A stretch of DNA of 64,000 bases from an uncultured Gammaproteobacteria bacterium. Lineage in GTDB: Bacteria > Patescibacteriota > Patescibacteriia > Magasanikbacterales > JBBTQS01. The position numbers and the translations under genes were made by a program. The stretch covers positions 21,367 through 85,366 of the forward strand of contig CAZVIA010000003.1 of NCBI GenBank assembly GCA_964627525.1. The letters are read 5' to 3'. Shown here piece after piece: positions 5,447 to 40,914 of the stretch (position 1 is the first letter of the stretch; every line of letters starts with the position of its first letter). A model generated the notes under the pieces. It saw nothing but the letters and a program-made list of their open reading frames with translations, was not told the DNA's origin and searched no databases.

Positions 5447-5475
5447 TTGACAAAAGTGCCTAAATATGATATAAT
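5447..5475 (+). promoter_or_regulatory. perfect consensus sigma70 promoter, TTGACA-17 bp-TATAAT
   Basis: TTGACA at 5447-5452, a 17-nt spacer, and TATAAT at 5470-5475. The SD AAAGGGAGA lies 5 nt upstream of the ATG at 5536. Confidence 0.7.
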
Positions 5476-5535
5476 ACTATCAATTCGTGTGCTGACTTTG
5501 GCATTGTCAGCCACAACAAAGAAAGGGAGACAGAC

Positions 5536-5946: not shown

Positions 5947-5987
5947 ACTCCGACAGTCGCGCGCCGTCCTCAATAAGCCACAACACC

Positions 5988-6040
5988 GCGCCCCAGTAAG
6001 ATCGTCACAGGTCTTGCATCTGGGGCGTTCTTTTTTATTT
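5988..6040 (+). terminator. rho-independent terminator
   Basis: An 8-bp GC stem (CGCCCCAG/CTGGGGCG) followed by TTCTTTTTTATTT. Confidence 0.6.
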
Positions 6041-6307
6041 AAAATAAATATCTTTTCTGTGTTTAATTATAAGAATTGTCAACAAAATTAATTGACCATT
6101 TGAATTTTTTTTAAAAATTGCACGATAGTTTCCAATTCTAAATCTGTACAAGCCTTTAAAATAACCAACTAAAGGTTTGGTATGTTTGAGTGGGTTTTTA
6201 TCCTCACAAAAAAATTTAATTTTACTAATTATTTTTTGAGCTTCTTGTTTTTCAATTTTTTGTAAATCTTTTATAGCCTTTTGTGTGTACAAAATTTTAT
6301 ATTTCAT
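6035..6307 (-). CDS. relE: RelE/ParE-family type II toxin
   Basis: 90 aa with a YRFRIGNYRAIF...IIKHRKDIY motif typical of RelE/StbE. Overlaps the upstream antitoxin by 4 bp. Confidence 0.7.
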   Translation of the reverse strand: MKYKILYTQKAIKDLQKIEKQEAQKIISKIKFFCEDKNPLKHTKPLVGYFKGLYRFRIGNYRAIFKKNSNGQLILLTILIIKHRKDIYFK

Positions 6308-6555
6308 ACAACCCCAAGCATATTTTCAACTTCTTTTTGTGTGAGTAAGCGTTTATTTTTTACATCATCAAGAGCTTCATCAACATCCTTAATTAAGTTT
6401 TCAAGAATAGACTCTTTTTTTGAAAGGGGATGTAACTCAAAAATTGGTTGATTTTTTTTCAAAATAATTAGTTTTTGATTTTTGATTTGAGCTTGTGAAG
6501 AAATTTTAGCCATATTTTGACGGAATTCTTTTAAGCCAACAAAGCGGGTAGTCAT
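6304..6555 (-). CDS. Phd/YefM-family antitoxin
   Basis: 83 aa, Phd/YefM-like N-terminus, located immediately upstream of the relE-like gene with an ATGA overlap. Confidence 0.6.
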   Translation of the reverse strand: MTTRFVGLKEFRQNMAKISSQAQIKNQKLIILKKNQPIFELHPLSKKESILENLIKDVDEALDDVKNKRLLTQKEVENMLGVV

Positions 6556-12397: not shown

Positions 12398-14764
12398 ATG
12401 AATAAAGAATTACCCAAAAAATACGATCACAAAACAACTGAAGATAAAATCAAAAAACTTTGGGAAAAGGAAAAAGTTTTTGAATTTAATTTTGATGAGA
12501 GCAAACCAATTTACGCAGTAGATACACCTCCTCCTTATGTTTCTGCAGATCATTTGCATTCAGGTCATATAATGTCCTATGCTCAAGCAGAATTTATTGT
12601 GCGGTACAAACGCATGAAAGGATTTAATGTTTTTTATCCAATGGGTTTTGATGATAATGGTTTGCCTACAGAAAGATTTGTGGAAAAAAAATATAATATA
12701 GATAAGTCAAAAGTTACAAAGCAAGAGTTTATAAAAATTTGTCTGGAAGAAACAAAAAAAGGTGCGCAAACTTATAAAGAATTGTGGACCAATTTAGGGA
12801 TTTCAGTTGATTGGTCAAAAACTTATAGCACAATTAATCCAACAGCGATAAAAGTTTCGCAGTGGTCGCTGATAGATTTGTTTCAAAAAGGTGCTTTGCA
12901 CAGAAGTGAAGCTCCTGTTTTGTGGTGTCCGCATTGTCAGACAGCTTTGGCTCAAGCAGATTTAGAAGACAAAGAAGATGAGTCAAAATTAAATTATATT
13001 ACTTTTAAATCAAGTGAGGGCGATGATCTTACTATTGCAACTTCTAGACCAGAGTTGTTGCCAGCTTGTGTTGCTTTGTATGTAAATCCAGAGGACAAGC
13101 GATTTAAACATTTGATTGGAAAAACTGCGACAGTGCCTTTGTTTGATTATGAGATTCCAATTAAGCCAAGTGAAAAAGTTGATATGGAATTTGGGACTGG
13201 TTTAATGATGGTTTGTACTTGGGGAGATCAGGAGGATTTAGATAAATGGCGCACAGATAAATTAGATACACGACCTTTGATTAAAGAAGATGGAACTTTG
13301 GGTGAAAATGGTGGTAAGTACAAAGGTATGTATTTGTTAAAAGCTAGAAAAGTTATTTTAGAGGATCTTGATGCGGCAAAATTTCTCACAAAACAAGAAG
13401 ACATCACACATTCTTTAAATGTTCATGAAAGATGTTCAACTGCAACAGAATTTGTTCTTAGTAAGCAGTGGTTTATAAAAATTGATGGGATGAAAGATGT
13501 TTGGTTAAAATATGGTGAACAATTAAATTGGTATCCAAAGTTTAAAGCCAAAGATTATGAGATGTGGGTAAATTCAATTAAATGGGATTGGTGTATTTCA
13601 AGACAGCGATATTATGGTGTGCCTTTTCCAATTTGGTATTGTAAAAAATGTGATGAGCCAGTTTTTGCTGAAGAAAAAGATTTGCCAATTCATCCAACTG
13701 AAAAAAATGCACCTGTTGATAAATGTTCAAAATGCGATTCCACAGATTTTGTTCCAGAAAACGATGTAATGGATACTTGGGCAACTTCTTCTTGCACTCC
13801 ATTTTTATTAAAGGAGTTGGTTGAGGAAAAAGCTAAGGATGCTGTTTTTCCAGTGACACTAAGACCAAATGCTTTTGAGATTATTAGGACTTGGGATTTT
13901 TATTCAATGGTAAAAAGTCATTATCATTTTGGAAAATTGCCTTTTAAGGATGTGATGATTTCAGGTCATGGTTTAGATGAAAAGGGTAAAAAAATATCTA
14001 AGCGTTTGGCTAATTATATTCCAGCCGACAAGTTGATTGAGGAGTTTGGTGCAGATGCAATTCGTTATTGGGCAACAGGTGCAACACTTGGTCGGAATTT
14101 GCGTTTTAATAAACAGGAAATTCAAAAAGGGAAAAAAACTGTTACAAAGTTGTGGAATGTTGCGCAGTTTTTGATTGTGAATAATGCTGAATTTAAAGCT
14201 GAAGAACAACCGGTTTTGGAGTATGCGGATTTGTGGATTTTTGAAGAATTAAACAAAACTATAAAAAGAGCCACAGCTTTGTTTGATAAATATGAATACT
14301 CTAAAGCGCGTGATGAAATTGATGTTTTCTTTTGGTCAAAATTTACTGACTATTACATGGAGTTTATTAAACATCGCTTGTCTGGAGATGATGATCAGTC
14401 AAAAGTTGGTGCGCAATATTGTTTTACAAAAGTTTTTGAAAATATTTTGAAAATGTATGCGCCAATTATGCCGTTTGTTACAGAGGAGTTGTTTCAGGTA
14501 TTTTTTAAAGATGTTAAAGGTTCTGAAAAAACTATTCACTTGTGCGCTTGGCCAGAGCAAATTGATGTTGAGGGTGGGGAATTAGACATTTCTGATTTTG
14601 ATAGTGCGATTGAGGCGATTAATGAGGTTAGGGGATTTAAGTCTGTAAATAATATGTCTTTGGGGACTGAATTACCAGAATATAAATTAAAAACCAAAGT
14701 TGATTTAGAAAAATACGGGGATTTTATTAAAAAAGCTATAAAAGTAGGGGGGTTGTTGGCTTAA
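12398..14764 (+). CDS. valS: valyl-tRNA synthetase (short form)
   Basis: Class I HIGH-like motif (HLHSGH) and KMSKS-like motif (KISKR). The editing-domain stretch NPEDKRFKHLIGK...DMEFGTG closely matches the ValS CP1 consensus NPEDPRYKDLIGK...DMEKGTG. Confidence 0.7.
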   Translation: MNKELPKKYDHKTTEDKIKKLWEKEKVFEFNFDESKPIYAVDTPPPYVSADHLHSGHIMSYAQAEFIVRYKRMKGFNVFYPMGFDDNGLPTERFVEKKYNIDKSKVTKQEFIKICLEETKKGAQTYKELWTNLGISVDWSKTYSTINPTAIKVSQWSLIDLFQKGALHRSEAPVLWCPHCQTALAQADLEDKEDESKLNYITFKSSEGDDLTIATSRPELLPACVALYVNPEDKRFKHLIGKTATVPLFDYEIPIKPSEKVDMEFGTGLMMVCTWGDQEDLDKWRTDKLDTRPLIKEDGTLGENGGKYKGMYLLKARKVILEDLDAAKFLTKQEDITHSLNVHERCSTATEFVLSKQWFIKIDGMKDVWLKYGEQLNWYPKFKAKDYEMWVNSIKWDWCISRQRYYGVPFPIWYCKKCDEPVFAEEKDLPIHPTEKNAPVDKCSKCDSTDFVPENDVMDTWATSSCTPFLLKELVEEKAKDAVFPVTLRPNAFEIIRTWDFYSMVKSHYHFGKLPFKDVMISGHGLDEKGKKISKRLANYIPADKLIEEFGADAIRYWATGATLGRNLRFNKQEIQKGKKTVTKLWNVAQFLIVNNAEFKAEEQPVLEYADLWIFEELNKTIKRATALFDKYEYSKARDEIDVFFWSKFTDYYMEFIKHRLSGDDDQSKVGAQYCFTKVFENILKMYAPIMPFVTEELFQVFFKDVKGSEKTIHLCAWPEQIDVEGGELDISDFDSAIEAINEVRGFKSVNNMSLGTELPEYKLKTKVDLEKYGDFIKKAIKVGGLLA

Positions 14765-14802
14765 TTTAGAGATTAATTTAGGGGGAAATTAAAGTGCAAA
14801 GC

Positions 14803-14831
14803 TTGACAAAGTCAGGCTTATGTGCTATATT
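14803..14831 (+). promoter_or_regulatory. near-consensus sigma70 promoter, TTGACA-17-TATATT
   Basis: TTGACA at 14803-14808 and TATATT at 14826-14831, upstream of the GGGGGTAAAG SD and the ATG at 14878. Confidence 0.5.
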
Positions 14832-14877
14832 TTTGTGTCTGGCAATTTTGCCAAGACCAAGGAAACTGGGGGTAAAG

Positions 14878-15381
14878 ATGAGGGAGAGAATGATATTTTT
14901 CTGTGCTATTTTTGTGCTTATGGCCGCTCTAGTCTATGTCTTTGGTTCCAAAAAGGATTCACCAGAAGTTCAAGAAACAACAGGTGAGCCAAGAAGTGAA
15001 TATAGTGTGGTATTTTGCGAAGTGGGTGAGTTTACAAGTGCTAGGCTTGAGATCACTGGGAATTACTTTCATGATTTTGTTGATCTAAAAGAAGGTAAGT
15101 CTTTTCCTTTGGGAATGGTTTGTGGTAAATGGCACCCCATCAAAGAGTGGGAAGGTCATTTCCAGGTCAATCTTATTCCAAGTAGAAAATACAGTCAGGT
15201 TTTGGTGTGCCTAAAGGGTTTCCCAAATAAAAATAACGTAGGAAGTACGTGTTATAAAGTGATTGATCGCGAGGGTGATTTTGGGATTGTCAGGACCATA
15301 GAGCTTAACATTGGGGAAGAAAAAAACCCTGATCTTTGGCCAGTTCAAAGTTTTGATATGGCGCCACCACCGTCTAACTAG
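14878..15381 (+). CDS. hypothetical exported or membrane-anchored protein, first gene of a GC-richer three-gene operon
   Basis: N-terminal signal-anchor MRERMIFFCAIFVLMAALVYVFG and a strong SD. GC is about 43-45% against about 33% in flanking genes. Confidence 0.5.
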   Translation: MRERMIFFCAIFVLMAALVYVFGSKKDSPEVQETTGEPRSEYSVVFCEVGEFTSARLEITGNYFHDFVDLKEGKSFPLGMVCGKWHPIKEWEGHFQVNLIPSRKYSQVLVCLKGFPNKNNVGSTCYKVIDREGDFGIVRTIELNIGEEKNPDLWPVQSFDMAPPPSN

Positions 15382-15410
15382 GCATAAGACACAGAAACAA
15401 GGAGGCCAAA

Positions 15411-15890
15411 ATGACATCCACAGAGAAAAAGCCTCAGGCTAAAGTTCTTGTGGTCAGTGTGTCAGGTTCCGTTCGGCAATTTTTGGGGAGTGTTGTAGAA
15501 CAAAGAGGTCGTGCTGTAACCAAAGTCCGAAATATTGCTTTTGCTGTTGAATTCATGTTGCATCAAGATGTTGATTTGGTGCTAGTTGATTTGCACCTAG
15601 AAGGCTCGCTGGATTTGATGGTTGAAGCCAAACAAAGACAACCAAATGTGTGTTTGTTGGGGATTGCGCGACATGATACTAATCCAGTGATTGTGTTAGG
15701 TGCATTGCAATTAGGTGGTATGCTAAACTGCCTGGTCATACCTGAAGATGGTCTGGGTGTTGTGTCAGAATTTACACGTGGTTTATTTGCAGATATCATA
15801 GATTCTGGTTTGGAATCAATCAAAGTTGCTTGCCCTCAGTGTAAGGGTGAGGGAACTGTACAGCGTTTTCCTGGTAAAGAAACACCCTAA
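15411..15890 (+). CDS. receiver-like (CheY-fold, non-canonical) domain protein with a C-terminal CxxCxGxG zinc-finger motif
   Basis: VLVVS...DLVLVDL receiver-like pattern lacking the acidic pair. The C-terminal CPQCKGEG is a DnaJ-type CxxCxGxG motif. AAGGAGG SD is present. Confidence 0.45.
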   Translation: MTSTEKKPQAKVLVVSVSGSVRQFLGSVVEQRGRAVTKVRNIAFAVEFMLHQDVDLVLVDLHLEGSLDLMVEAKQRQPNVCLLGIARHDTNPVIVLGALQLGGMLNCLVIPEDGLGVVSEFTRGLFADIIDSGLESIKVACPQCKGEGTVQRFPGKETP

Positions 15891-16041
15891 AGTTGAGAGT
15901 TGCCAACAACTACTTGAGAGCCACTAAGCTTAACGCGCTGGTGGTTTTTAAGTTGTCTAAAAAACTTGACACATCAACCCAACAGTGCTATTGTTTTTTG
16001 TTAAACAAATTTGTTTAACACATGCACGGGAGGGGGAGAAA

Positions 16042-17067
16042 ATGAGGATACTTGAGGTTTTTGCTGTCTATGTTATGGATGTAGTGTTAGCTGGAGTTGG
16101 TTGGGTAAAATGGTTTTACTCTAGGTGTAGGTTTTACATTAAAACCAATATTCTGAATCAAGTGATGTACAAGATTAATCCTAAGCAAAGTGTGCGAATG
16201 TACATGCAAGCAAGTCTGTTGTCTTTACAAAAAGAAAAAGATGAGTTTGCTACATTGGATTTGTTGTTTAGTTTGCCACCACATCTGTCTGATGTTTTGA
16301 CGAATTTTATGATGTACATTCAAGGTGCAAAGGAAATCATGCAATCTTGTGGCACATGGCCATTTGAAAATGAGGATGAGGAATTTAGTAGTACCAAGCT
16401 CAAGCTTATTTATTCCAAACTTGCAAAGTTTTTTCTTGAAAACAAGTGTAGGGGTTTTTTGGAATATGATGAAGCTTTGGATTACCAAGATGCTTTATTG
16501 TGCGAACAACTAAGGCAGTTGATCGGTGCAATGTCTGCAATAGGTAATCCTAGTGCTAGATTTGATCCTTGGTTTTATTTTGCAATGTGGTCTGAGGAAT
16601 TGGATCTTGTTGAGATTGCTTTTTGCAGGTCTTTAGGTAATTACTTGATTGCGCGTGCTAATAAGCAAAGAGCTAACATAAAAGATTATGTACCACCTGG
16701 TTTACCACCAGAATTTGTGGTCAAGTTGATTGAAATGGTTGCAGAGATTAATTTGATTGAGTTGAGTTTGTCAGAAGCAGATAGATTTTATGATGACATT
16801 GGAGTGGATCATAAGACAAGTGATTTCAATACAGTGTGTTTGTTCTTGGGTGGTTATCTGTGTCATCTTTGTGTGGGGGAGTCATTTCCAATACTAGATT
16901 GTGAAATTGGTTTGTTATACCGTGGTCAGATTACAAAGTACTTGGCACATGTCATGTATTCTCTTGTAACTACTGTGCCTGGTGATGAACCAGATCTTTT
17001 ATTTTTCTCTCCTATGGATTGGAAGGATCAAACTTTTGAATTTGAAAGTGAATGGGATGGTGAATAA
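16042..17067 (+). CDS. hypothetical acidic cytoplasmic protein of 341 aa, no recognisable domain
   Basis: GGGAGGGGGAG SD followed by an ATG at 16042. The ORF-track start at 15985 is likely an upstream extension. Confidence 0.5.
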   Translation: MRILEVFAVYVMDVVLAGVGWVKWFYSRCRFYIKTNILNQVMYKINPKQSVRMYMQASLLSLQKEKDEFATLDLLFSLPPHLSDVLTNFMMYIQGAKEIMQSCGTWPFENEDEEFSSTKLKLIYSKLAKFFLENKCRGFLEYDEALDYQDALLCEQLRQLIGAMSAIGNPSARFDPWFYFAMWSEELDLVEIAFCRSLGNYLIARANKQRANIKDYVPPGLPPEFVVKLIEMVAEINLIELSLSEADRFYDDIGVDHKTSDFNTVCLFLGGYLCHLCVGESFPILDCEIGLLYRGQITKYLAHVMYSLVTTVPGDEPDLLFFSPMDWKDQTFEFESEWDGE

Positions 17068-17107
17068 GTTGGGGATTTTGAAAAAAACTTTAAAAAACAA
17101 CAAAGAG

Positions 17108-17140
17108 CCGTGCGTTTAACAGTGTACGGTTTTTTGATTG
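17108..17140 (+). terminator. probable rho-independent terminator of the three-gene operon
   Basis: An imperfect hairpin CCGTGCG...TGTACGG followed by TTTTTTG. Confidence 0.35.
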
Positions 17141-17151
17141 TTAGTTTTCTC

Positions 17152-17189
17152 TGTTCACTATTGTGAAGAATGTTAGAGTTGAGTTTTGT
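17152..17189 (+). repeat. 38-bp junction repeat, copy 1 (TGTTCACTATTGTGAAGAATGTTAGAGTTGAGTTTTGT)
   Basis: One of six copies of a conserved repeat containing the palindrome TTCAC-TATT-GTGAA and a GATGTTAG(A/G)A core. Confidence 0.8.
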
Positions 17190-17383
17190 TTAGAATTGCA
17201 CTAATCTTTCTTAAATAATAAGATTTTGGTACAGTATATTTGTACTGAATATTTTATGTCTAAAAAATATCAAAAACAATCTGTTATTTATCAAGGTAAA
17301 ACTGGAGCTATTAAAGGAAAAACCCGAAAGATAAAGATAAGATGATTGGGTTGGTTTTGTTGTTGTTGAAGAAATAGTTTTAG

Positions 17384-17421
17384 TGTTCACTGTTGTGAAG
17401 GATGTTAGAACTGGGTTTTGT
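17384..17421 (+). repeat. 38-bp junction repeat, copy 2
   Basis: TGTTCACTGTTGTGAAGGATGTTAGAACTGGGTTTTGT. Confidence 0.8.
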
Positions 17422-17492
17422 GTCATATAATAAGTTTTAATATCTTTATAAAAACACACTGCCCACGTTAATGAGCAGTGTGTGGTAAGAAT

Positions 17493-18014
17493 TCAATAAC
17501 GTTGTCTTTTTGGTTTAATACCTTTGAGATAATAATCAATCCTTTCTTTTTTCCACATTTTTTCAATATTAGCATCATCAGTTCTTGTGCCTGGATAAAC
17601 TCTATTTTTGCCTTTTTCTAAGGTTCTCTTTAATCCAAAACTTTTTGAATCAATATGTGCAATAGTAAGTTCATCAATCAGTTGATCTACTTTTTGTCTT
17701 GTGCTTTGATCTACCCCTTCTCTTTTGCGATCTATGCTATTAGATGTGTTTGGGTCATTACCATGTCCTTCACCTAATAATACTTTTAATTCATCTATGC
17801 TAATTGTTAAACCATGCTTGCTTTGTATTGTTTTACCAATTGCATACAAACAATCATATTTATTTAAACGCATGAAATAACCTTCTTTGTCCTTGAATAC
17901 GAATTTTACAAGGGTGTGATTTTCATCAACCTCTTGTTCAATATTATATTCTCTTTCTTCTCTGTATCGGGATCCTTGGTCATAATTATATCCATATTTT
18001 TTTGGTTCTGTCAC
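17493..18014 (-). CDS. hypothetical protein of 173 aa
   Basis: Clean ORF lying between repeat copies 2 and 3; no recognisable motif. Confidence 0.45.
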   Translation of the reverse strand: MTEPKKYGYNYDQGSRYREEREYNIEQEVDENHTLVKFVFKDKEGYFMRLNKYDCLYAIGKTIQSKHGLTISIDELKVLLGEGHGNDPNTSNSIDRKREGVDQSTRQKVDQLIDELTIAHIDSKSFGLKRTLEKGKNRVYPGTRTDDANIEKMWKKERIDYYLKGIKPKRQRY

Positions 18015-18204
18015 TACTTGCCACCCCTTTTTGTTGGTTAATGTTTGTTGAAATTTACCACCTAGTCTTTTCTGTGTTATTTTGATATTCGTAATTATAG
18101 TTTTTTTAATTTAAAATTAGCTATTTTTTTTGTATAAAAATATTTTGTTCGTGGTTATTGACAAAAAACTTGTTAAATGTTAAGTTGTTGTTCTATTAAA
18201 AACT

Positions 18205-19038
18205 ATGAAAATATTTGATGAAAACCAAAAATTAATTTTTAAATTACAGAAGTGTGGTTTAACAAAAAAACAGACCACTGTTTATCTTGGTCTTTTAGAA
18301 TTAGGAGGTGCTTTTCCTTCAAAAGTTTCTGATTATGTAAACATGAATAGATCAACTGTTTATAAAATTCTTAGTGATTTATCTATTAAAAATTTAATTG
18401 TTGAAACAAAAAAAAGAGGTAAGTGGTTTTATTGTGTTGAAAAACCAGAAAAACTATTGTCTCACAACAAACGCAGGATTAATATATTAAATAAAGAAAT
18501 TAAAAGTACTGAAAATGTTTTAAAGGATTTAAATAGTTTATTTTCTTTAAATTTACAAAAACCAAAAATTAAATTTTATGAGGGTGTTGAAGGGGTCTTA
18601 GAAGTGTTTCGTAGTCATCTGAATATTGAAAAGCCGTATGAAATGTTGGCTGTTTGTAATGCATCTAAGTTTTTAAAATTTATTCCTAATAAGGAATTAA
18701 AAAAATATTTGAAAGCAAAAGAAAAGTTGGAGATTACAACCAGGGGATTAGTGCCAGATACAAATACAGACATCAAATATAATAATAGTGCTTGTAAAAA
18801 TGCTGGGGTTAGCAAAAAAACATGGCCAAAGTTGAGGTTTGTTTCTTCAGAGGTTTTTAATATGGGAAGTGATATAACTGTTTATGGTGAGGATAAAATA
18901 TCAATTATAAATTTTACTAATGATAAATTGATAGGGATTATCATCGAAGATAAAACTATACACGATATGTTTAAAATGGTCTTTAATCTTGCGTGGAAAG
19001 GTGCTGAGAGGGGTTGTTTAAGATGTTCACTATTGTGA
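18205..19038 (+). CDS. TrmB-family-like HTH transcriptional regulator; paralogue of the gene at 24712
   Basis: The N-terminal LTKKQTTVYLGLLELG...STVYKILSDLSIKNLI winged-HTH pattern resembles TrmB. The last six codons and the stop lie inside repeat copy 3. Confidence 0.5.
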   Translation: MKIFDENQKLIFKLQKCGLTKKQTTVYLGLLELGGAFPSKVSDYVNMNRSTVYKILSDLSIKNLIVETKKRGKWFYCVEKPEKLLSHNKRRINILNKEIKSTENVLKDLNSLFSLNLQKPKIKFYEGVEGVLEVFRSHLNIEKPYEMLAVCNASKFLKFIPNKELKKYLKAKEKLEITTRGLVPDTNTDIKYNNSACKNAGVSKKTWPKLRFVSSEVFNMGSDITVYGEDKISIINFTNDKLIGIIIEDKTIHDMFKMVFNLAWKGAERGCLRCSLL

Positions 19039-19061
19039 AGGATGTTAGGATTGGGTTTTTT
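19024..19061 (+). repeat. 38-bp junction repeat, copy 3
   Basis: TGTTCACTATTGTGAAGGATGTTAGGATTGGGTTTTTT. Confidence 0.8.
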
Positions 19062-19125
19062 TAGATATTTTATAATTTCAGTCGGTATGGTAGTATAGAT
19101 TATATAAGTTTAATCAAATAAATAT

Positions 19126-19557
19126 ATGAATTTTCAAATAGAAAATTGTGGTTTTTGCCAATATAATAAAACCAAAAATACATTCAAAAAAATGAATTTT
19201 CAGCCAAGTGGAATTGAAGGTGGAGGTCAAAATAGCGCAGAAAGAGCTGGTTTTTGTAAAGATGGGAATAATCCAGAGACGTGCGAGACATGTAAAACAG
19301 AAAATGAAATTAAATTAATGGAAGCTCAAGCTGAAATTGATAATAGAGCAAAAATAGTGGACGCAGAAGCAGGTGAGTTAAGAGCACAAAGTATTAGGGC
19401 TACTGGTGAGCAAATGCATAGACAGATGGCAGATGATGCAGAAATGACTGCAAGGCAAATGGAGAGGTTTGGTTATGGAAAAGGTAAAGAAAGGTTAAAT
19501 ACATTTCATGACAAAAACGAAGAATTTTACGATCAAAGAGGTAGAAAAAAAGAATAA
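19126..19557 (+). CDS. hypothetical zinc-ribbon protein (CGFC...CETC) with a coiled-coil C-terminus, copy 1
   Basis: 143 aa with two CxxC pairs and an A/E/R-rich helical tail. Confidence 0.5.
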   Translation: MNFQIENCGFCQYNKTKNTFKKMNFQPSGIEGGGQNSAERAGFCKDGNNPETCETCKTENEIKLMEAQAEIDNRAKIVDAEAGELRAQSIRATGEQMHRQMADDAEMTARQMERFGYGKGKERLNTFHDKNEEFYDQRGRKKE

Positions 19558-19627
19558 TAGTTATATAAGGTTATTAAACAGAAGTTTTTTTGTTTGTGTT
19601 AATATAGTAAATATTTAATCAAAAACC

Positions 19628-20200
19628 ATGAGAGGAGAAAGAAGACCTGGAGAAGGTTCTAATGCGCGTGAGTTTAAAGCGCCCTCATCACTTTCTGAAG
19701 AAGATCATTATTCTACTTTGGGAGTTTCTAGAAATTCTAGCCCTGCTGAACTTAAAGCAGCTTATCGTGCGTTGGCACAAATCCATCATCCAGATAAAGG
19801 TGGTAATGAGGAAGATTTTAAACTTGTTGGTCAAGCTTTTGAAGTTCTTAGTGATCCAGGTCAGCGTGAGACATATGATCTTACTAAGTTTGCGCCTAGC
19901 AGTCCTGAACAACAAACATACGAAACAGGTGTTAGGCAGCCTACTGAAGAAGAAAAGAGAAGAATGGATGAGGAACTTGCCAAAGATAGAGCCAGAAGAG
20001 AAAAAGAGAGAAAAGAGAGAAAAGAAAAATGGAGAAAAGAACATCCAGAACTTGCAAGACAGCAAGATGAAATTGGGGCAGCTAAAAAAGAAGCAGTAAG
20101 CCAAGTAAAGGAAGATTTAGCCAAAGCAAAGGAAGATTTAGCAAAAATGAAAACTGATTTAAGAGCTAGGGCAGCTGAAATGAAAAGTAAACGGTTCTAA
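19628..20200 (+). CDS. J-domain (DnaJ-like) protein with a K/E-rich coiled-coil tail, copy 1
   Basis: DHYSTLGVSRNSSPAELKAAYRALAQIHHPDKGG...FKLVGQAFEVLSDPGQRETYD is a canonical J-domain with the HPD motif. Confidence 0.75.
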   Translation: MRGERRPGEGSNAREFKAPSSLSEEDHYSTLGVSRNSSPAELKAAYRALAQIHHPDKGGNEEDFKLVGQAFEVLSDPGQRETYDLTKFAPSSPEQQTYETGVRQPTEEEKRRMDEELAKDRARREKERKERKEKWRKEHPELARQQDEIGAAKKEAVSQVKEDLAKAKEDLAKMKTDLRARAAEMKSKRF

Positions 20201-20241
20201 TATTAACATTACCTATCTCAATTTTTACTTGAACTTAGTAG

Positions 20242-20279
20242 TGTTCACTATTGTGAAGGATGTTAGGATTGGGTTTTTT
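20242..20279 (+). repeat. 38-bp junction repeat, copy 4
   Basis: Identical to copy 3. Confidence 0.8.
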
Positions 20280-20343
20280 TAGATATTTTATAATTTCAGT
20301 CGGTATGGTAGTATAGATTATATAAGTTTAATCAAATAAATAT

Positions 20344-20775
20344 ATGAATTTTCAAATAGAAAATTGTGGTTTTTGCCAATATAATAAAACCAAAAATACA
20401 TTCAAAAAAATGAATTTTCAGCCAAGTGGAATTGAAGGTGGAGGTCAAAATAGCGCAGAAAGAGCTGGTTTTTGTAAAGATGGGAATAATCCAGAGACGT
20501 GCGAGACATGTAAAACAGAAAATGAAATTAAATTAATGGAAGCTCAAGCTGAAATTGATAATAGAGCAAAAATAGTGGACGCAGAAGCAGGTGAGTTAAG
20601 AGCACAAAGTATTAGGGCTACTGGTGAGCAAATGCATAGACAGATGGCAGATGATGCAGAAATGACTGCAAGGCAAATGGAGAGGTTTGGTTATGGAAAA
20701 GGTAAAGAAAGGTTAAATACATTTCATGACAAAAACGAAGAATTTTACGATCAAAGAGGTAGAAAAAAAGAATAA
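20344..20775 (+). CDS. hypothetical zinc-ribbon protein, copy 2 (identical)
   Basis: 100% identical duplicate. Confidence 0.5.
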   Translation: MNFQIENCGFCQYNKTKNTFKKMNFQPSGIEGGGQNSAERAGFCKDGNNPETCETCKTENEIKLMEAQAEIDNRAKIVDAEAGELRAQSIRATGEQMHRQMADDAEMTARQMERFGYGKGKERLNTFHDKNEEFYDQRGRKKE

Positions 20776-20845
20776 TAGTTATATAAGGTTATTAAACAGA
20801 AGTTTTTTTGTTTGTGTTAATATAGTAAATATTTAATCAAAAACC

Positions 20846-21418
20846 ATGAGAGGAGAAAGAAGACCTGGAGAAGGTTCTAATGCGCGTGAGTTTAAAGCGC
20901 CCTCATCACTTTCTGAAGAAGATCATTATTCTACTTTGGGAGTTTCTAGAAATTCTAGCCCTGCTGAACTTAAAGCAGCTTATCGTGCGTTGGCACAAAT
21001 CCATCATCCAGATAAAGGTGGTAATGAGGAAGATTTTAAACTTGTTGGTCAAGCTTTTGAAGTTCTTAGTGATCCAGGTCAGCGTGAGACATATGATCTT
21101 ACTAAGTTTGCGCCTAGCAGTCCTGAACAACAAACATACGAAACAGGTGTTAGGCAGCCTACTGAAGAAGAAAAGAGAAGAATGGATGAGGAACTTGCCA
21201 AAGATAGAGCCAGAAGAGAAAAAGAGAGAAAAGAGAGAAAAGAAAAATGGAGAAAAGAACATCCAGAACTTGCAAGACAGCAAGATGAAATTGGGGCAGC
21301 TAAAAAAGAAGCAGTAAGCCAAGTAAAGGAAGATTTAGCCAAAGCAAAGGAAGATTTAGCAAAAATGAAAACTGATTTAAGAGCTAGGGCAGCTGAAATG
21401 AAAAGTAAACGGTTCTAA
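20846..21418 (+). CDS. J-domain protein, copy 2 (identical)
   Basis: 100% identical duplicate. Confidence 0.75.
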   Translation: MRGERRPGEGSNAREFKAPSSLSEEDHYSTLGVSRNSSPAELKAAYRALAQIHHPDKGGNEEDFKLVGQAFEVLSDPGQRETYDLTKFAPSSPEQQTYETGVRQPTEEEKRRMDEELAKDRARREKERKERKEKWRKEHPELARQQDEIGAAKKEAVSQVKEDLAKAKEDLAKMKTDLRARAAEMKSKRF

Positions 21419-21459
21419 TATTAACATTACCTATCTCAATTTTTACTTGAACTTAGTAG

Positions 21460-21497
21460 TGTTCACTATTGTAGAGGATGTTAGAACTGGGTTTTAT
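21460..21497 (+). repeat. 38-bp junction repeat, copy 5 (variant TGTTCACTATTGTAGAGGATGTTAGAACTGGGTTTTAT)
   Basis: The palindrome is disrupted (GTAGA instead of GTGAA); this copy ends the duplicated block. Confidence 0.75.
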
Positions 21498-21539
21498 TTG
21501 ACTTGATTTAGTAAATATGCTAATTTCAATATAGATTAC

Positions 21540-21700
21540 AATTTAATATAAACGTATCCAGAGAGTAGAGATGTTAAGGGAATTGACCCAAAGCTCTACC
21601 CGCAACCTATTTGTTTAGGTGCGAAATTCAACCCTATTGGGATAGATACTAGGAATCACTGGATGACGTCGCCCTTAAGGTGACTTTTTATTTTAGTTAT
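21540..21700 (+). promoter_or_regulatory. structured GC-richer leader ending in an intrinsic terminator (riboswitch- or attenuator-like)
   Basis: Several local hairpins (GTAGAG...CTCTAC; CGCAACCT...AGGTGCG). A terminator GUCGCC-cuuaa-GGUGAC followed by TTTTTATTTT lies at about 21665-21700, immediately upstream of the ORF at 21711. Confidence 0.35.
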
Positions 21701-21710
21701 CAAGGTCATC

Positions 21711-21962
21711 TTGTGGGCGACATCATCAAAAAACAGCCTTGCATCAATTCCGATGCAAGGTGTTGTTTTTTGTAAAAAGCCCAAAAAGAGAGTGACTATG
21801 GCCTGGGAAGGAATGAGAAAGTGTGTTTTCTGTCGCAGTGCTTGGTGTAAGTGTGGAAATCTGAGAAGAGAAAGAGAAAGGGTAAAGGCTGGTGGGAAGA
21901 GAAATAAATCAAGAACCTACACCAACAAGACTCCTCGGCTAGGGATTGTGAGGGTAAACTAA
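21711..21962 (+). CDS. small Cys- and K/R-rich hypothetical protein of 83 aa
   Basis: ORF with FCKKPKK...CVFCRSAWCKCGN. Weak evidence; could be non-coding. Confidence 0.25.
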   Translation: MWATSSKNSLASIPMQGVVFCKKPKKRVTMAWEGMRKCVFCRSAWCKCGNLRRERERVKAGGKRNKSRTYTNKTPRLGIVRVN

Positions 21963-21977
21963 ATAAACAACACAAAC

Positions 21978-22018
21978 AAGAAAACCGTTGTGTATAACAC
22001 ATAGCGGTTTTTCTTTTA
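21978..22018 (+). terminator. rho-independent terminator
   Basis: ACCGUUGUGU-auaa-CACAUAGCGGU stem with G-U pairs, followed by TTTTTCTTTT. Confidence 0.5.
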
Positions 22019-22022
22019 AAAA

Positions 22023-22060
22023 ATGTTCACTATTGTGAAGGATGTTAGAACTGGGTTTTG
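22023..22060 (+). repeat. 38-bp junction repeat, copy 6
   Basis: TGTTCACTATTGTGAAGGATGTTAGAACTGGGTTTTGT; the last copy, abutting the ABC-transporter operon. Confidence 0.8.
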
Positions 22061-22118
22061 TGTACCCCATGGTGTGTAACACTATATTATTTAGATTGGG
22101 TATGTCATTTCTATTTTC

Positions 22119-22910
22119 TTAACAGAGGATGTCAAGATCAGTTTTAGTGGCATTGCCAGTCCAATGTATAATTTTTCTTTCCAAAATACTGAATAATTTG
22201 TTCAGAGTAAAACCTAATAATCCGACAATAATTATATAAGCATAAAGTTCAGCGATTTTATAAGTAATGTAACTGTCGTAAATTTTTTGTCCTAAACCAA
22301 ATTTTGTTCCTATAAACATTTCTGTAACCACTACCACAATTAATGCTAAAGAGATTGCTACTCGTAAACCGATTGCAATTTGAGGCAGTGCAGCAGGAAT
22401 AATTATTCTTTTGATCAGCTGATATTTCGATGCATTATATATTTTTCCAACTTTAATCATTAGATGGTGGATATTCCAAACACCGAGTATTGTGTTTATT
22501 TGTATAATCCAAAAGCAAATAAAGACAGTAATAACTATTTTTGATAAGTCTCCAATTCCAAAGAATAGCAAAAATAAAGGGAAAAGAGCTGTGGCAGGAA
22601 GTGCGCGAAAGAATTCAATAGTTCCTTCTAAAAGAGAAAAGAGTTTTTTGTTTAGTCCAATTATAATTCCACACGATATGCCAAAGAAAGCGGCAATGAG
22701 AAATCCTGTAAAAGTTCTATAAAATGTTTCTTGTAAATCAATTAAGTAGTCATGACTCACAATGATGAGAAAGACTTCTTTTATGTTTGGAAGATAGAAT
22801 TGATTTATCTTGAATAGATAATTTGAAGCTGCCCAAATTAATAAGAACGAGATAGGTATCAAAAGAGGGGTGATGAATTTTTTACATTTTAATAGTTTAG
22901 TTTTCATCAT
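22119..22910 (-). CDS. ABC transporter permease (nitrate/sulfonate/bicarbonate, SsuC/TauC-like family)
   Basis: Six TM helices with an EAA-like loop; overlaps the upstream substrate-binding protein gene by 14 bp. Confidence 0.7.
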   Translation of the reverse strand: MMKTKLLKCKKFITPLLIPISFLLIWAASNYLFKINQFYLPNIKEVFLIIVSHDYLIDLQETFYRTFTGFLIAAFFGISCGIIIGLNKKLFSLLEGTIEFFRALPATALFPLFLLFFGIGDLSKIVITVFICFWIIQINTILGVWNIHHLMIKVGKIYNASKYQLIKRIIIPAALPQIAIGLRVAISLALIVVVVTEMFIGTKFGLGQKIYDSYITYKIAELYAYIIIVGLLGFTLNKLFSILERKIIHWTGNATKTDLDILC

Positions 22911-23886
22911 TGGCTTTTTTTAAGTACCGTGGCTCTATTAAGTTTATGTAGTCAATTTTTTGTTTAGGATCAAACCATTCTTTTTCTAGTGTCAATTCAT
23001 CAAGTAAATCATCTTCGAGACTAATTTTAAAAGTATATTTATCCCAACTATCTTTAAGCTGGTCTTTATCCATTCCAGTTATATCAGAGACTATTTCTAT
23101 TGATTTGTTTCGATCTTGTTGGATAAAGTCAGTCGCATCAATTAAAGCTTTTTGAAATGCAATTATTGTTGTCTGGTTAGCCTCATTTTCAAGAAAAGAA
23201 TCAGTTGCCATTGTTAGATATGGTAAGGCATGCAATCCTTTTTCTTTGCCAAAAATTATTATTTTGTCAGCTCCGATTAAATTAGTTGTGTTTGTTATAA
23301 ATGGTTCCCATGCACAGAAAGCATCGAGCTCCTTATTTTGTAGTGCACTTGGTAATGCTAGTGGCTGATTAAGTTTAATCAATTCATAAGTATCTTTTTC
23401 AATTCCAACTTCCTTTAGAGTATTGATAATAGCTAATTGTGTTATTGTTCCTTTTACATAACCAATCTTTTTGTTTTGTAAGTCAGATAATGTATTAATG
23501 TTTGAATCAATTCGTGCAATTATTTGAAAATCATCAGCCAATGTGACTTGATTAATTATTTTTACATCTCCTCTCTGAAATGAAAAATGCACAAAAGGAG
23601 TAACTCCAGTTGATGCAAATTGAGCTTTATTAGATGTTAGTGCATGCAGTGTTTCAAGACCTGTTGTAAAATAAACCATCTCAACATCTAGACCGTTTTT
23701 TTTAAAGAATTCTTTTTCCTTGGCGATGATATATGGTGCTGCCAAAGGAATTTTATGTGTAGCAAAAACAATAGAGCGTGTTTCTTGTTGAGATTCTTGA
23801 ATCGAATTGTTGGGTAAGAGATAGAATAGTCCAAAAATGGCTATTAAAGATAATATTACAAGTATTGGGTAGAGAATTTTTTTCAT
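22897..23886 (-). CDS. ABC transporter substrate-binding protein (NMT1/SsuA-like)
   Basis: N-terminal signal anchor plus a periplasmic binding-protein fold pattern. Located between the ATPase and permease genes. Confidence 0.6.
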   Translation of the reverse strand: MKKILYPILVILSLIAIFGLFYLLPNNSIQESQQETRSIVFATHKIPLAAPYIIAKEKEFFKKNGLDVEMVYFTTGLETLHALTSNKAQFASTGVTPFVHFSFQRGDVKIINQVTLADDFQIIARIDSNINTLSDLQNKKIGYVKGTITQLAIINTLKEVGIEKDTYELIKLNQPLALPSALQNKELDAFCAWEPFITNTTNLIGADKIIIFGKEKGLHALPYLTMATDSFLENEANQTTIIAFQKALIDATDFIQQDRNKSIEIVSDITGMDKDQLKDSWDKYTFKISLEDDLLDELTLEKEWFDPKQKIDYINLIEPRYLKKANDEN

Positions 23887-23905
23887 ATGTTTATTTAATT
23901 ATTGG

Positions 23906-24661
23906 TTATAATTGATTAAGATATGACAATAAAATTTTATTTTTAAATGTTGCAAAGTTTGAACTACCAATGATTTTTGTGTTTCTTGGATAAGGTAGTG
24001 GATTTTTAAATATATTTGATATGGTTGTTGGTTTATTGCTTAATAGAACAATTTTTTGTGCCAGAAAAATCGCTTCATCTATATCATGAGAAACATATAT
24101 TGTAGTGATCTTTTTTTTCATCCATATATCATGTAGTTTTGTTAATAAAAATAATTTTGTTTGATAATCAAGTGACGAAAGAGGTTCATCAAGTAGATAT
24201 AAGTCTGGTTCAATAATTAATCCTCGTAAAATAGATATCATTTGTTGTTGCCCACCACTTAGTTGATAAGGGTATTGATTGAGATCTGTGTTTATGTTTA
24301 AGTTTTTACATATTTGGGAAAAAAGTTTTTTTTGCTCCAACTTGTTAATGTGTCTTAGTTTGAGAGGGAATAGTATATTGTCTTTTACTTTAAGCCAAGG
24401 GAAAAGTGATTTTCTGTAATCTTGGAATACCATTGCAATATTAGGTTTTTTCTTATTTTGGTTATTAATAGAAAACACTCCATTTGTTGCTTTGGTCAAA
24501 TTACTTATTATTTCAAGTAAGGTAGTCTTTCCACATCCGTTTGGACCTAAGAGAGCAACAAATTCACCTTGTTGAATGTTTAGATTTATCTGTTTGAGAA
24601 CCTCGACAGGGTGGTCTTTGTTTGAAGTGTAATTTTTACTAATATTAGTTAGTTTAAGCAT
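23906..24661 (-). CDS. ABC transporter ATP-binding protein
   Basis: Walker A GPNGCGKTT, signature LSGGQQQ, Walker B LLDEP. Confidence 0.85.
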   Translation of the reverse strand: MLKLTNISKNYTSNKDHPVEVLKQINLNIQQGEFVALLGPNGCGKTTLLEIISNLTKATNGVFSINNQNKKKPNIAMVFQDYRKSLFPWLKVKDNILFPLKLRHINKLEQKKLFSQICKNLNINTDLNQYPYQLSGGQQQMISILRGLIIEPDLYLLDEPLSSLDYQTKLFLLTKLHDIWMKKKITTIYVSHDIDEAIFLAQKIVLLSNKPTTISNIFKNPLPYPRNTKIIGSSNFATFKNKILLSYLNQL

Positions 24662-24711
24662 ATTTGTCTTTATATACTTTACAATACTATACTAATCTAG
24701 TATGTTAAATA

Positions 24712-25560
24712 GTGTCGTCGACATGCGACAACAAATATAAATTTATGCTTGAAAAGGTATTTATTAAATTAAATTTGGATGAAAAACATACTAGGGTTTA
24801 CTTAACACTTTTTGAAGAGAGTGTTTCGACTGCTGGTAAATTATCAAAGAAGTTAAGTATTCCTCGTTCTACTTTGTATGGTTTGCTATATGATTTAAAT
24901 AAAAAAGGCTTGGTAATTCAAAGTGAAAAACAAGGAATAAAAGTATGGCAGGCTGAATCACCTGATAAGTTAAAACATTTAATCAATAATGAAATTAATA
25001 ATTTGGAAGATTTAAATTTGAACTTATCTACATTAATTACTGAATTGAAAAACAAGGAAAAACAAGATTTTGTTAGTCCTAAATTTAGCTATTTTGAAGG
25101 TCCTGATGCTTTAAGGCAAATGCTTAAAGATGTGTTATGTTATAGAAATATCGATACTATTGCTTTTTGGCCAATTAGTGAAATGATAAAAATATTAGGA
25201 AAAGATTTTTTTATATATTCTAATAAGGAAAGAATTAAGCGTAACATTTCTGCAAAAGTACTTTGGCCAAATGATAGGCAGGTGGATTTAAAAGATAATG
25301 TATTTTTAGGAGTGGGGAATGATTTTAAAAGAGAAATTAGAATTGCTCCCAAAAACATAGATTGTTCTATGGGATATTGGGCATATGAAAACAAAGCAGC
25401 TTTTTTGTCTTCAAAAAAAGAAAGCTTTGGTTTTATTGTTGAAAGTGTTGAATTAAAGCAGTTGTTAGAAACTCAATTTAATGTTTTGTGGGAATTATCA
25501 AAGTCTATAAAACCACAAAAAGCTCACACACAAAAATTTATTAATGAGCTGAACTTGTAA
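24712..25560 (+). CDS. TrmB-family-like HTH regulator, paralogue of 18205-19038; divergent from the ABC operon
   Basis: Same architecture and alignable residues (RVYLTLFE...STLYGLLYDLNKKGLV...PDKLKHLIN). The true start may be the internal Met at about 24745. Confidence 0.5.
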   Translation: MSSTCDNKYKFMLEKVFIKLNLDEKHTRVYLTLFEESVSTAGKLSKKLSIPRSTLYGLLYDLNKKGLVIQSEKQGIKVWQAESPDKLKHLINNEINNLEDLNLNLSTLITELKNKEKQDFVSPKFSYFEGPDALRQMLKDVLCYRNIDTIAFWPISEMIKILGKDFFIYSNKERIKRNISAKVLWPNDRQVDLKDNVFLGVGNDFKREIRIAPKNIDCSMGYWAYENKAAFLSSKKESFGFIVESVELKQLLETQFNVLWELSKSIKPQKAHTQKFINELNL

Positions 25561-25830
25561 ATAGTTCTAATTTCCACATAAGTTATTTCGATTATCCTTT
25601 AAGTTTACAAAAATGGTTTCCACTTTTGGATGCGCTCAGAACTATGAATTGAGGTAATTATAAAGATTTTTTCAAGGTGACTAACCTTTCAATTGAAGAA
25701 GTTTTTGTTTGATTATTTCTTTTAGACCTGCTTTTTCTAATTTTATTTTTTTGTTTGTAAGAGATTATACCTAAAATTTCTACTATGAATCCTATTAATG
25801 TTCCTGTGATCGATAATTTTTATATTAAAA

Positions 25831-26901
25831 TTAACTATTACCTTTTTTAATATTACAAGGTCTACACAAGAGTTGTGCATTTGAAAGCACTGTTCTACCC
25901 CCTTTACTCCACGGATCTACGTGATCCATAGAAAGCTCTTCAGTGTAAAAGTATTTATTACAAATTTTGCATTTATATTTGCCTTCATTGTTAGGCTTTT
26001 GTTTTTTTAAGAATTCTTTTTTATCATCAATAGAAAATAGTCGTTTATCATCAACACTAATATTTTTCACTATAGCTTGGATAATGTCTTCGATCTCCTG
26101 TGCCTTATTAGTCAACTTTGCATCATCGCTTTTTAAATATTTTTTGACTCTTAAATTAATTTCATCTTTATTCTTTTTCCATATTACTGAATCTTTGATA
26201 TATTTTCTGGCCAAGTTGAAATAAATATCCAACTGGCCATAACTGTTAAATATATTACTTATAAATTTAATGTATTTAGTAATATCTTTTTGATCAGTAA
26301 CAAACGATTCATTTTGGTTTTGACTTACATAATCATTTATATTAGCTGTGTCTTTTGGTAAATTTCTTAAGATCATTAGTAGTTTTAATATTTTATATTG
26401 ATTTTTTCCACGACTATTAGAGCCCAACACTTTTATGGCATCTCTGTCTTGTTTTGCGTATGTAGATAACCCTCTTAAATATTCACCATAAAAAAGACCA
26501 TTTAACACTTCGTAGTTAGATAAAGGTACGCCTAAGGTGTTTATTCTTCTAAAGATTTCTCTTTTCAACTCCTCCTTTCCTTCACAAATTATTATTGAGA
26601 GTTCGGTTTTATTTATTATTTCTTGAGTTTTTTTGTCTGTCTGTTTCCAAAGTTTTTCCTCGAATAGTATGTCATTTTCAATGAATTTTTTTATTGCTTC
26701 AATTCTTTGTTTTCCATCTAAAACTTCTAGTATGCCCTTTTTATTTTTCCAAAAGTAAAAAGCTGGCAATGGAATTCCTTTAACAATACTGTCTACAACC
26801 AATATTTGCTTATTAGTGTCGTAGACAATTTCCCTTTGAAGTTCAATATCACTAATAATTTTGCCATCCCTTACTTCCTCGTATAAGTGTTTTATGTTCA
26901 T
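25831..26901 (-). CDS. DUF262 (ParB/GmrS-like) N-terminal domain fused to a C-terminal HNH nuclease; GmrSD-like putative restriction endonuclease
   Basis: LEVLDGKQRIEAI, the DGQQR motif of DUF262, at the N-terminus. The C-terminal CKICNKY...DHVDPWSKGG...CRPCNIKKG is an HNH motif. Confidence 0.65.
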   Translation of the reverse strand: MNIKHLYEEVRDGKIISDIELQREIVYDTNKQILVVDSIVKGIPLPAFYFWKNKKGILEVLDGKQRIEAIKKFIENDILFEEKLWKQTDKKTQEIINKTELSIIICEGKEELKREIFRRINTLGVPLSNYEVLNGLFYGEYLRGLSTYAKQDRDAIKVLGSNSRGKNQYKILKLLMILRNLPKDTANINDYVSQNQNESFVTDQKDITKYIKFISNIFNSYGQLDIYFNLARKYIKDSVIWKKNKDEINLRVKKYLKSDDAKLTNKAQEIEDIIQAIVKNISVDDKRLFSIDDKKEFLKKQKPNNEGKYKCKICNKYFYTEELSMDHVDPWSKGGRTVLSNAQLLCRPCNIKKGNS

Positions 26902-27905: not shown

Positions 27906-27919
27906 ATAAATTTATTTTG

Positions 27920-31146: not shown

Positions 31147-31149
31147 AGG

Positions 31150-31758: not shown

Positions 31759-31759
31759 T

Positions 31760-40703: not shown

Positions 40704-40709
40704 TAGTTT

Positions 40710-40902: not shown

Positions 40903-40914
40903 ATAAATTTTTAA

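Follow-up and report, generated by a model that had tools for sequence, protein, structure and literature searches.

A Three-Gene Orphan Locus with Strong Shine–Dalgarno Sequences and Atypical Codon Usage in a Patescibacteria-Like Genome

Overview

Receiver domains do not always rely on phosphorylation: atypical or pseudo-receivers, such as HP1043, ChxR and those of the FrzS type, act without it. Nor is translation everywhere guided by the Shine–Dalgarno (SD) sequence. In the Bacteroidia, there are lineages that have no SD sites and ribosomes that ignore SD sequences (PMC7797042, PMC13000453), and in an SD-blind Flavobacterium one strong SD is used for the autoregulation of rpsU (PMC13000453). 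Here, we describe a locus of three genes, g1, g2 and g3, found at 14803-17136 in a 64,000-nt stretch of contig CAZVIA010000003.1 (hereafter, the window means this whole stretch). All three genes are led by strong SD sequences in a genome whose annotated genes are not, all three deviate from the host in codon usage, and all three encode orphan proteins. The reading that we favor, if only by a little, is that of a recently acquired, dispensable accessory locus lodged between valS and a repeat-rich variable region and made up of two tandem units.

The genes g1 (14878-15381, 167 aa), g2 (15411-15890, 159 aa) and g3 (16042-17067, 341 aa) lie on the forward strand, and the list of open reading frames (ORFs) bears out the coordinates given for them in the preliminary description of this DNA. 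That the three genes are real follows from the lengths of the ORFs (167, 159 and 341 codons where, by a hand estimate from base composition, about 8% of random codons would be stops), from the coding pattern in which the G+C content of first codon positions exceeds that of the second and third positions in all three ORFs, and from the junctions between valS, g1, g2 and g3, which are identical across independent ENA, JGI and Logan assemblies.

Translation Starts and Codon Usage

As had been claimed earlier, a strong SD precedes each of the three genes, with anti-SD duplex energies ranging from −9.7 to −11.2 kcal/mol. An SD-like GGGGG is found 5 nt upstream of the ATG of g1 (14868-14872; −9.7 kcal/mol), a perfect AGGAGG stands 5 nt upstream of the ATG of g2 (15400-15405; −11.2 kcal/mol), and the ATG of g3 is preceded by GGGAGGGGGAG (16028-16038; −11.0 kcal/mol). 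The annotated genes of the host have A/T-rich leaders without SD. In 51 of the 58 curated genes of the window, including all of the 38 that are annotated by Pfam, the duplex energy lies above −6 kcal/mol, while energies of −8 kcal/mol or lower were obtained for the remaining seven, all of which lack a domain match (none of the 38 Pfam-annotated genes is among them; Fisher p = 2.6 × 10−4). Besides g1, g2 and g3, these SD-led genes are 17493-18014 (173 aa), 42130-42582, 62550-63113 and 63124-63402. The mean G+C content at third codon positions (GC3) is 0.37 in the SD-led genes and 0.24 in the others (p = 0.0014). Scanning of the whole window added the SD-led ORFs 5536-5946 (GC3 0.73), 41318-41545 and 63546-63905. 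On the contig of the nearest relative (L085), none of the nine genes has an SD. The idea that most host genes are leaderless was rejected, as −10 boxes show no enrichment immediately before the start codons.

For the test of codon usage, genes were simulated with host synonymous frequencies while the amino-acid sequence was kept fixed, and host core genes were treated by leave-one-out. The resulting z values are −6.9 for g1, −4.7 for g2 and −4.8 for g3, compared to −0.3 ± 1.7 for the core genes. The shift is toward G/C-ending codons such as AAG, AGG, GTC, ACC and ATC: AAG makes up 46% in the module versus 18% in the host, AGG 33% versus 5%, and GTC 17% versus 1%. GC3 amounts to 0.32-0.36 in g1–g3 (0.357 in g1), whereas the window genes without a strong SD average 0.24. 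When set against the rest of the 64-kb window, all three genes depart from the host core.

The preliminary description had placed the genes about 10 GC points above neighboring valS (33.8% GC). The content is raised in g1 (40.5%, +6.7 points), g2 (42.9%, +9.1) and g3 (36.5%, +2.7), but the size of the shift was overstated and g3 is unremarkable in this respect. The whole locus span, at 39.1% GC, is in the 96.8th percentile of windows of equal length; g3 alone is in the 75th.

Thus, g1–g3 differ from the host by two independent signals, codon usage and translation starts. The foreign look of the module is reasonably supported, and the earlier suggestion of horizontal acquisition agrees with the codon z values of −4.7 to −6.9, the absence of SD from 38 of 38 Pfam-annotated genes and the orphan status of the products.

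Homology Searches

All three proteins are orphans. In searches of up to 15 billion proteins, the only matches were near-identical copies from one population. A word-indexed search of 5.8 billion clusters with g1, g2 and g3 returned the same sequences only, and a full HMMER search of 1.84 billion representatives with g3 yielded self-matches and P0009 alone. The latter (E-value, 6 × 10−5) was rejected as a relative of g3: it is a 1581-aa repeat protein, and its 36-aa repeats each weakly match the same 50 residues. A tblastn search of phage and plasmid collections gave no match to g1, g2 or g3, and the viral contigs of IMG/VR held nothing for the three proteins or for the core of the repeat found downstream. 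PADLOC has no match for any of the three, PADLOC, PHROGs, Pfam and NCBIfam yielded nothing for g1 or g3, and a sequence search of the PDB with g1 and g3 found nothing below an E-value of 0.7. There are no paralogues of g1–g3 within the window, and among 164 retrieved loci no relative was present except near-identical copies of the locus itself. These copies occur in several samples and assemblies, at 99.8-100% identity.

Organization of the Locus

The locus starts with P1, a promoter-like TTGACA-17-TATATT with a TG extension (14803-14831) that agrees with the consensus at 11 of 12 positions and is the promoter named in the preliminary description. The window contains 12 sites as good as P1, whereas chance would give 3.5, and since sites of the same grade also precede valS, bipA and tRNA-Asn, the type is the host's ordinary promoter and not a foreign one. 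No terminator is present between valS and g1, so read-through from valS into g1 is possible.

While g1 and g2 are separated by 29 nt, the spacer between g2 and g3 is 151 nt long and contains three elements. A hairpin followed by a U-run (15912-15952), possibly a weak terminator or attenuator, was not called in a consensus terminator scan, but the fold of the spacer is more stable than those of its shuffles (0 of 200 as stable; z = −2.96). It is followed by P2, a second promoter-like site with a TG extension (TTGACA-17-TATTGT, 15966-15994; 10 of 12 consensus positions). Directly downstream of the −10 box of P2 is the perfect 20-bp palindrome GTTAAACAAATTTGTTTAAC (16000-16019), a candidate operator at a position where a repressor would block transcription from P2. 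The palindrome is unique in the window when up to three mismatches are allowed, and 12 of 100 shuffles also give such a match; alone, it is weak evidence. Because of these spacer elements, an arrangement of two tandem units, g1–g2 and g3, appears likeliest, and the single three-gene operon that had been proposed earlier is doubtful.

The g3 unit is closed by an intrinsic terminator (17101-17136; fold z = −4.58) with a 16-pair stem, a subsequent T-run and an A-tract on its upstream side. The position of this terminator, 13 nt ahead of the first 48-nt repeat (17149), is just where the terminal hairpin had been noticed. A search of Rfam with 14700-17500 at E-values up to 1 identified no RNA family.

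Predicted Gene Products

The g1 protein has a positively charged N-terminus (MRER), which is followed by a single hydrophobic span of 19 residues (about residues 5-24) and a remainder of approximately 140 aa containing four Cys. With one N-terminal span found, its designation as a signal-anchored protein stands. The Cys-bearing domain is probably located outside the cytoplasm; given that DsbA and VKOR are encoded by the host, it may plausibly face outward and be disulfide-bonded. Alternative starts of g1, each with an SD, are GTG at 14794 and ATG at 14890.

The g2 protein was described earlier as receiver-like plus zinc finger, and the two halves of this description fared differently. Residues ~10-100 are receiver-like, although below threshold: residues 12-94 match Pfam Response_reg (PF00072) with an E-value of 2.2 × 10−4 and 21.8 bits, under the cut-off of 30.2. 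About 20 NCBIfam response-regulator models match g2 weakly (E-values of 4 × 10−4 to 0.17, all far under their cut-offs), the ArcA receiver structure 1xhe matches it with an E-value of 0.002, and in PHROGs it matches receiver-like families of unknown function only. Residue D60, located in the motif LVLVD, corresponds to the phospho-acceptor Asp (D57 of CheY) and is invariant in comparison to ArcA, CheY and two receivers of the host. In contrast, S16-V17 replaces the Mg2+-binding acidic pair (E-D in ArcA, D12/D13 in CheY), the position of the switch Thr is occupied by Ala when aligned with HMMER or by Gly when aligned with MAFFT, and I110-P111 is found at the Lys-Pro position in a manual alignment of a region that neither program aligned confidently. 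Since D60 is kept but the acidic pair, the Thr and probably the Lys are lost, g2 is probably a non-phosphorylatable pseudo-receiver.

The divergent C-terminal part of g2 carries CPQCKGEG (residues 141-148), which is a single CxxCxGxG unit containing C141 and C144; the other two Cys residues (81 and 107) are found within the receiver-like part. The zinc finger thus reduces to one such unit, which cannot bind zinc alone; any zinc site would require a dimer or a partner. The DnaJ zinc-finger family of Pfam did not match g2 at E-values up to 1, and there is a faint match to the anti-TRAP model of NCBIfam (E-value, 0.054). A single-sequence AlphaFold2 model of g2 has a mean pLDDT of 37.8, too low for a reading of the fold.

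The g3 protein is acidic (isoelectric point, 4.66), aromatic-rich and predicted to be all-helical. It contains nine Cys, four of which form the cluster C266-x7-C274-x2-C277-x9-C287, and it has no match in the domain libraries, in agreement with the initial account of an acidic, Cys-containing protein without a recognizable domain. An AlphaFold2 model from the single sequence (pLDDT, 41.8) is too low in confidence to be used. Its hydrophobic N-terminal helix (residues 1-22) has a basic flank on the C-terminal side, which favors a cytoplasmic location for the bulk of the protein. Sequence analysis identified neither a cleavable signal peptide or other secretion signal nor a recognizable catalytic motif.

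On one contig (L180; ENA assembly ERZ23499038, sample SAMN10231901), the substitution G16744T converts codon 235 of g3 into a stop (E235*). The same contig carries a synonymous change at 16656; these are the only two single-nucleotide polymorphisms inside the module (n = 2), too few for a test of selection. The population with E235* can do without g3 or, at the minimum, without its final 107 residues, in which the Cys cluster lies. Truncation of g3 in a natural population is in keeping with an accessory role and speaks against an unopposed toxin.

Adjoining Repeat Array and Neighboring Elements

Downstream of the locus, six same-strand copies of a direct repeat of 38-48 nt are distributed over 17149-22068 and bound units of small genes. 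The core of the repeat is TGTTCACTATTGTGAAGGATGTTAGAAYTGGGTTTTGT, with the inverted motif TTCAC-N4-GTGAA. With up to three mismatches allowed, the six copies are placed at 17153-22048 and no copy was found upstream of g1. Between repeat copies, a 1218-bp segment is duplicated in tandem (19024-20241 and 20242-21459), while it is single-copy in other assemblies from the same population. In addition, two contigs from two other samples (L167 and L169) join the window at 18128: their first 33 nt, ACCCTTAATGGCAATATCTAAAATTAAAACTGG, are not present in the window, and the matching part starts with TTTTGTATAAAAAT. The junction reads AACTGGTTTTGT, like the end of the repeat, and lies just upstream of the TrmB gene, which suggests a strain variant with another left-hand context. 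The 1218-bp duplication and the alternative junction ending in AACTGGTTTTGT demonstrate that the repeats recombine. Four assemblies break at 18107-18133.

The genes between the repeats code for a 143-aa protein, a DnaJ-domain protein and TrmB; they follow the host in codon usage and are not led by an SD. No tyrosine (IntI-type) integrase was found in the window; the only recombinase found is a large serine recombinase ~15 kb away, and the recombinase and tRNA-Gln nearest to the module are found at 32.2-33.9 kb. The locus adjoins the array and bears no sign of belonging to it.

The region that follows, 22119-33891, looks like a separate integrated element, with codon z values of −3.6 to −7.4 and a GC content of 28-30% over ~22-30 kb. 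Encoded there are an ABC transporter, another TrmB, an EcoRI-like methylase, a restriction protein of the GmrSD/HNH type and several orphans; at its end come the large serine recombinase and then tRNA-Gln.

Further Orphan Modules in the Window

The window contains at least five orphan modules of a similar kind, the g1–g3 locus included. The others, each combining a promoter, SD and raised GC3, are located at 5447-5990, 41318-41545, 42043-42650 and 62486-63410. The first of them has a perfect TTGACA-17-TATAAT and an SD, followed by a gene for a 136-aa protein with three to four hydrophobic spans (5536-5946); at 54% GC and a GC3 of 0.73 in a 34% GC genome, it is far more shifted than g1–g3. No Pfam match and no Rfam RNA family were found for this module. 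Module 42043-42650 codes for a 150-aa protein, 62486-63410 for a 187-aa multi-pass membrane protein and a 92-aa protein, and 41318-41545 for a 75-aa protein with two hydrophobic spans; at 63546-63905, a 119-aa protein gene is preceded by AAGGAGG and has host-like GC3. The SDs of these four are strong, and most of them have a TTGACA promoter and raised GC3.

Near the first module, on the minus strand at ~6035-6513, a ParE-family toxin and a small upstream partner are encoded according to the gene calls on contig L172. The pair looks like a toxin–antitoxin system and is located between the GC-rich orphan at 5536 and a gene for a 374-aa protein. At 40676-40906, TTGACA-17-TATACT is followed by a GC-rich, strongly structured transcript of ~185 nt (fold z = −5.5) and a terminator, a candidate unclassified small RNA with no credible Rfam match at E-values up to 1. 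Further downstream, at ~41105-41150 on the minus strand, GCCCGGGTTCGAATCCCGCGAGCACCC resembles the T-arm and acceptor end of a tRNA or transfer-messenger RNA (tmRNA) and could be a tRNA fragment at an integration site beside GC-rich orphan modules. The GC-rich 41.1-41.6 kb region was considered as a tmRNA gene and rejected, as neither ARAGORN nor Rfam calls one. The ORF for 132 aa on the minus strand at 41178-41576 is probably spurious.

Host of the Locus

The window has 34.4% GC and a bacterial gene content. Since it encodes GreA, BipA, DnaX, the NAD-dependent ligase LigA, DnaG, RpoD (59564-60949), GatC/GatA, type IV pilus proteins and DsbA/VKOR, in addition to a DEAD-box helicase, cysteinyl-tRNA synthetase, Lgt, an FeFe hydrogenase and a VirD4-like ATPase, the host is a bacterium. 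It is read as a low-GC bacterium with a small genome, similar to Patescibacteria, i.e., to the candidate phyla radiation (CPR).

The gene upstream of the locus, valS (12398-14764), codes for a valyl-tRNA synthetase of archaeal/DPANN type. Its best matches in the genome collection are from DPANN archaea (44-48% identity), compared to ~25% for ordinary bacterial enzymes. In metagenomes, the top match is 54% identical; its contig has different neighboring genes and is read as bacterial and CPR-like because it also encodes MurC. In total, the valS search of genome and metagenome collections found DPANN archaea and this one CPR-like contig, and no sister genome. Within valS, independent ENA and JGI assemblies break at one point (13275-13280): some contigs stop at 13274, others begin at 13281, while a contig from another sample spans the site unchanged. 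It may represent a strain-level branch point.

Origin and Function of the Locus

The simplest account of these data is that g1–g3 would have been acquired laterally, the unsampled donor being one with SD sequences in use and a higher GC3, and that such acquired modules have not yet drifted to the composition of the host. Unit 1 (P1, g1, g2) would then supply a membrane-anchored protein and a cytoplasmic partner, and unit 2 (P2, palindrome, g3) an acidic helical protein that begins with a hydrophobic helix, probably from its own repressor-controlled promoter. The products would form an envelope-associated accessory module in which g2 may act as a phosphorylation-independent adaptor rather than as a two-component regulator; this is our best guess as to function.

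Several points weigh against such an account. The functional part is drawn from hydropathy, a sub-threshold domain match and gene order only. Concerning the origin, no donor lineage and no mobility gene beside the module were found, no convincing direct or att-like repeats flank it, the promoters are of the host's own type, and g3 is just 2.7 GC points above valS. All copies are at least 99.8% identical, and there is no strain without the module among them. The SD-led orphans 17493-18014 and 63546-63905 have host-like GC3, so the link between SD and foreign composition is imperfect. Moreover, the reference for SD and codon usage is a curated set of 58 genes from one 64-kb window, and the anti-SD is an assumed 16S tail that was not read from the host.

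Some of these points would be expected if the genes were native, fast-evolving and lineage-specific and had never been transferred, their SD and codons marking a special expression class that is translated via SD while most genes are translated via A/U-rich leaders. Orphan genes are common in CPR-like genomes. The host-type promoters, the lack of a mobility signature or donor, and the two SD-led genes with host-like GC3 would all suit such a class, for which the autoregulation of Flavobacterium rpsU through a strong SD (PMC13000453) offers a parallel. Nevertheless, we regard this explanation as rather unlikely: the codon deviation is conditional on the protein, involves G/C-ending codons and runs counter to the mutational bias of the host, it coincides with SD in most of the modules, and it reaches a GC3 of 0.73 at 5536-5946 in a genome of 34% GC. 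The nonsense allele of g3 is also at odds with a strongly selected native role. A still bolder proposal, in our view a long shot, is that g1–g3 are founders of three new families and together make up an undescribed envelope-associated module that serves an episymbiotic CPR-like bacterium in sensing or host interaction, and that the SD-led orphan modules, a minority in an otherwise SD-free genome, are a separately translated regulon and more than relics of transfer. If true, the use of SD would itself split the proteome into core and accessory sets.

The remaining explanations concern what the locus does or whether it does anything. It was suggested in the preliminary description that g3 may be an effector, and a conflict module, either for anti-phage defense or made up of an immunity protein and an effector that is secreted or contact-dependent, would be in keeping with the GmrSD/HNH protein, the EcoRI-like methylase and the ParE toxin of the variable region, with small orphan genes adjoining repeats and with the VirD4-like coupling ATPase in the window. 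However, PADLOC, PHROGs, Pfam, NCBIfam and the PDB offer no match for g1 or g3, toxin, defense and phage libraries included, g3 has no cleavable signal peptide and no recognizable catalytic motif, and its charge pattern favors the cytoplasm. The E235* allele also leaves g1 and g2 intact, unlike what is expected of a toxin with its immunity gene, and we consider a conflict module improbable and the effector proposal not borne out. The same description had the module heading a cassette array. The end of the module only 13 nt before the first of six 48-nt repeats, which recombine as judged from the 1218-bp duplication and the two contigs with the AACTGGTTTTGT junction, might point to a first cassette inserted by integron-like site-specific recombination, but no repeat precedes g1 even with three mismatches, no integron-type tyrosine recombinase was found in the window, and the genes of the array, host-like in codons and without SD, are unlike g1–g3. 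Such an origin is very improbable, and so is the reduction of the ORFs to chance frames or decaying pseudogenes. The latter could account for the lack of homologues, the low-confidence structure predictions for g2 and g3, and the one nonsense allele; still, in AT-rich DNA chance is very unlikely to produce ORFs of 159-341 codons, a correctly spaced SD precedes the start codon of each in addition to the promoter and terminator of the locus, the frames are intact in all other assemblies, and the receiver-like N-terminal half of g2 is still recognizable. Low AlphaFold confidence is what is expected without an alignment.

With recent acquisition as the favored explanation, the combination of SD and raised GC3 singles out a small group of orphan modules that are self-contained and have the look of recent acquisitions. 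If this held genome-wide, the accessory or foreign genes of such organisms could be recognized at little cost, and the SD-led genes pose the question of whether host ribosomes can use SD sites. Taken alone, the locus is one more orphan cluster in a poorly known lineage; the SD split is the point worth following.

Comparison with Known Systems

The translation starts recall the SD-free translation of Bacteroidia (PMC7797042, PMC13000453), in that the host has A/T-rich leaders and only a handful of genes with a strong SD. On the other hand, the host is CPR-like, and its SD-led genes are orphans, mostly with foreign-like codons, rather than rpsU. Regarding its composition, the locus is comparable to the small, laterally acquired islets of orphan genes with atypical composition, which are a general concept and not a family: GC3 is raised, codons deviate, homologues are lacking, the layout is self-contained from promoter to terminator beside a variable region, and at least one of the genes is dispensable. 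It differs from such islets in that its borders have neither an integrase nor a tRNA gene nor direct repeats, and by an unusual marker, SD in a genome whose annotated genes have none.

The array just downstream resembles integron cassette arrays, as short direct repeats bound small units and recombine, which is evident from the duplication and the alternative junction. Unlike integron cassettes, g1–g3 have no upstream repeat, no IntI-type integrase was found in the window, and the repeat, ~38-48 nt long with a 5-bp inverted repeat only, is not an attC-like imperfect palindrome.

Among the products, g2 invites comparison with receiver domains (PF00072), to which ~90 of its N-terminal residues align with the Asp position (D60) kept, and in particular with pseudo-receivers, which likewise lack the metal-binding acidic pair and the Thr/Ser switch. 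In contrast to receivers, g2 scores below the cut-off, its alpha4-beta5-alpha5 half aligns poorly, it lacks an output domain, be it DNA-binding or enzymatic, and a kinase gene is not located nearby. Near its end, CPQCKGEG is an exact copy of the CxxCxGxG unit of the DnaJ and anti-TRAP (RtpA) fingers; the single unit of g2 compares with the two (anti-TRAP) or four (DnaJ) that serve for intrachain binding of zinc.

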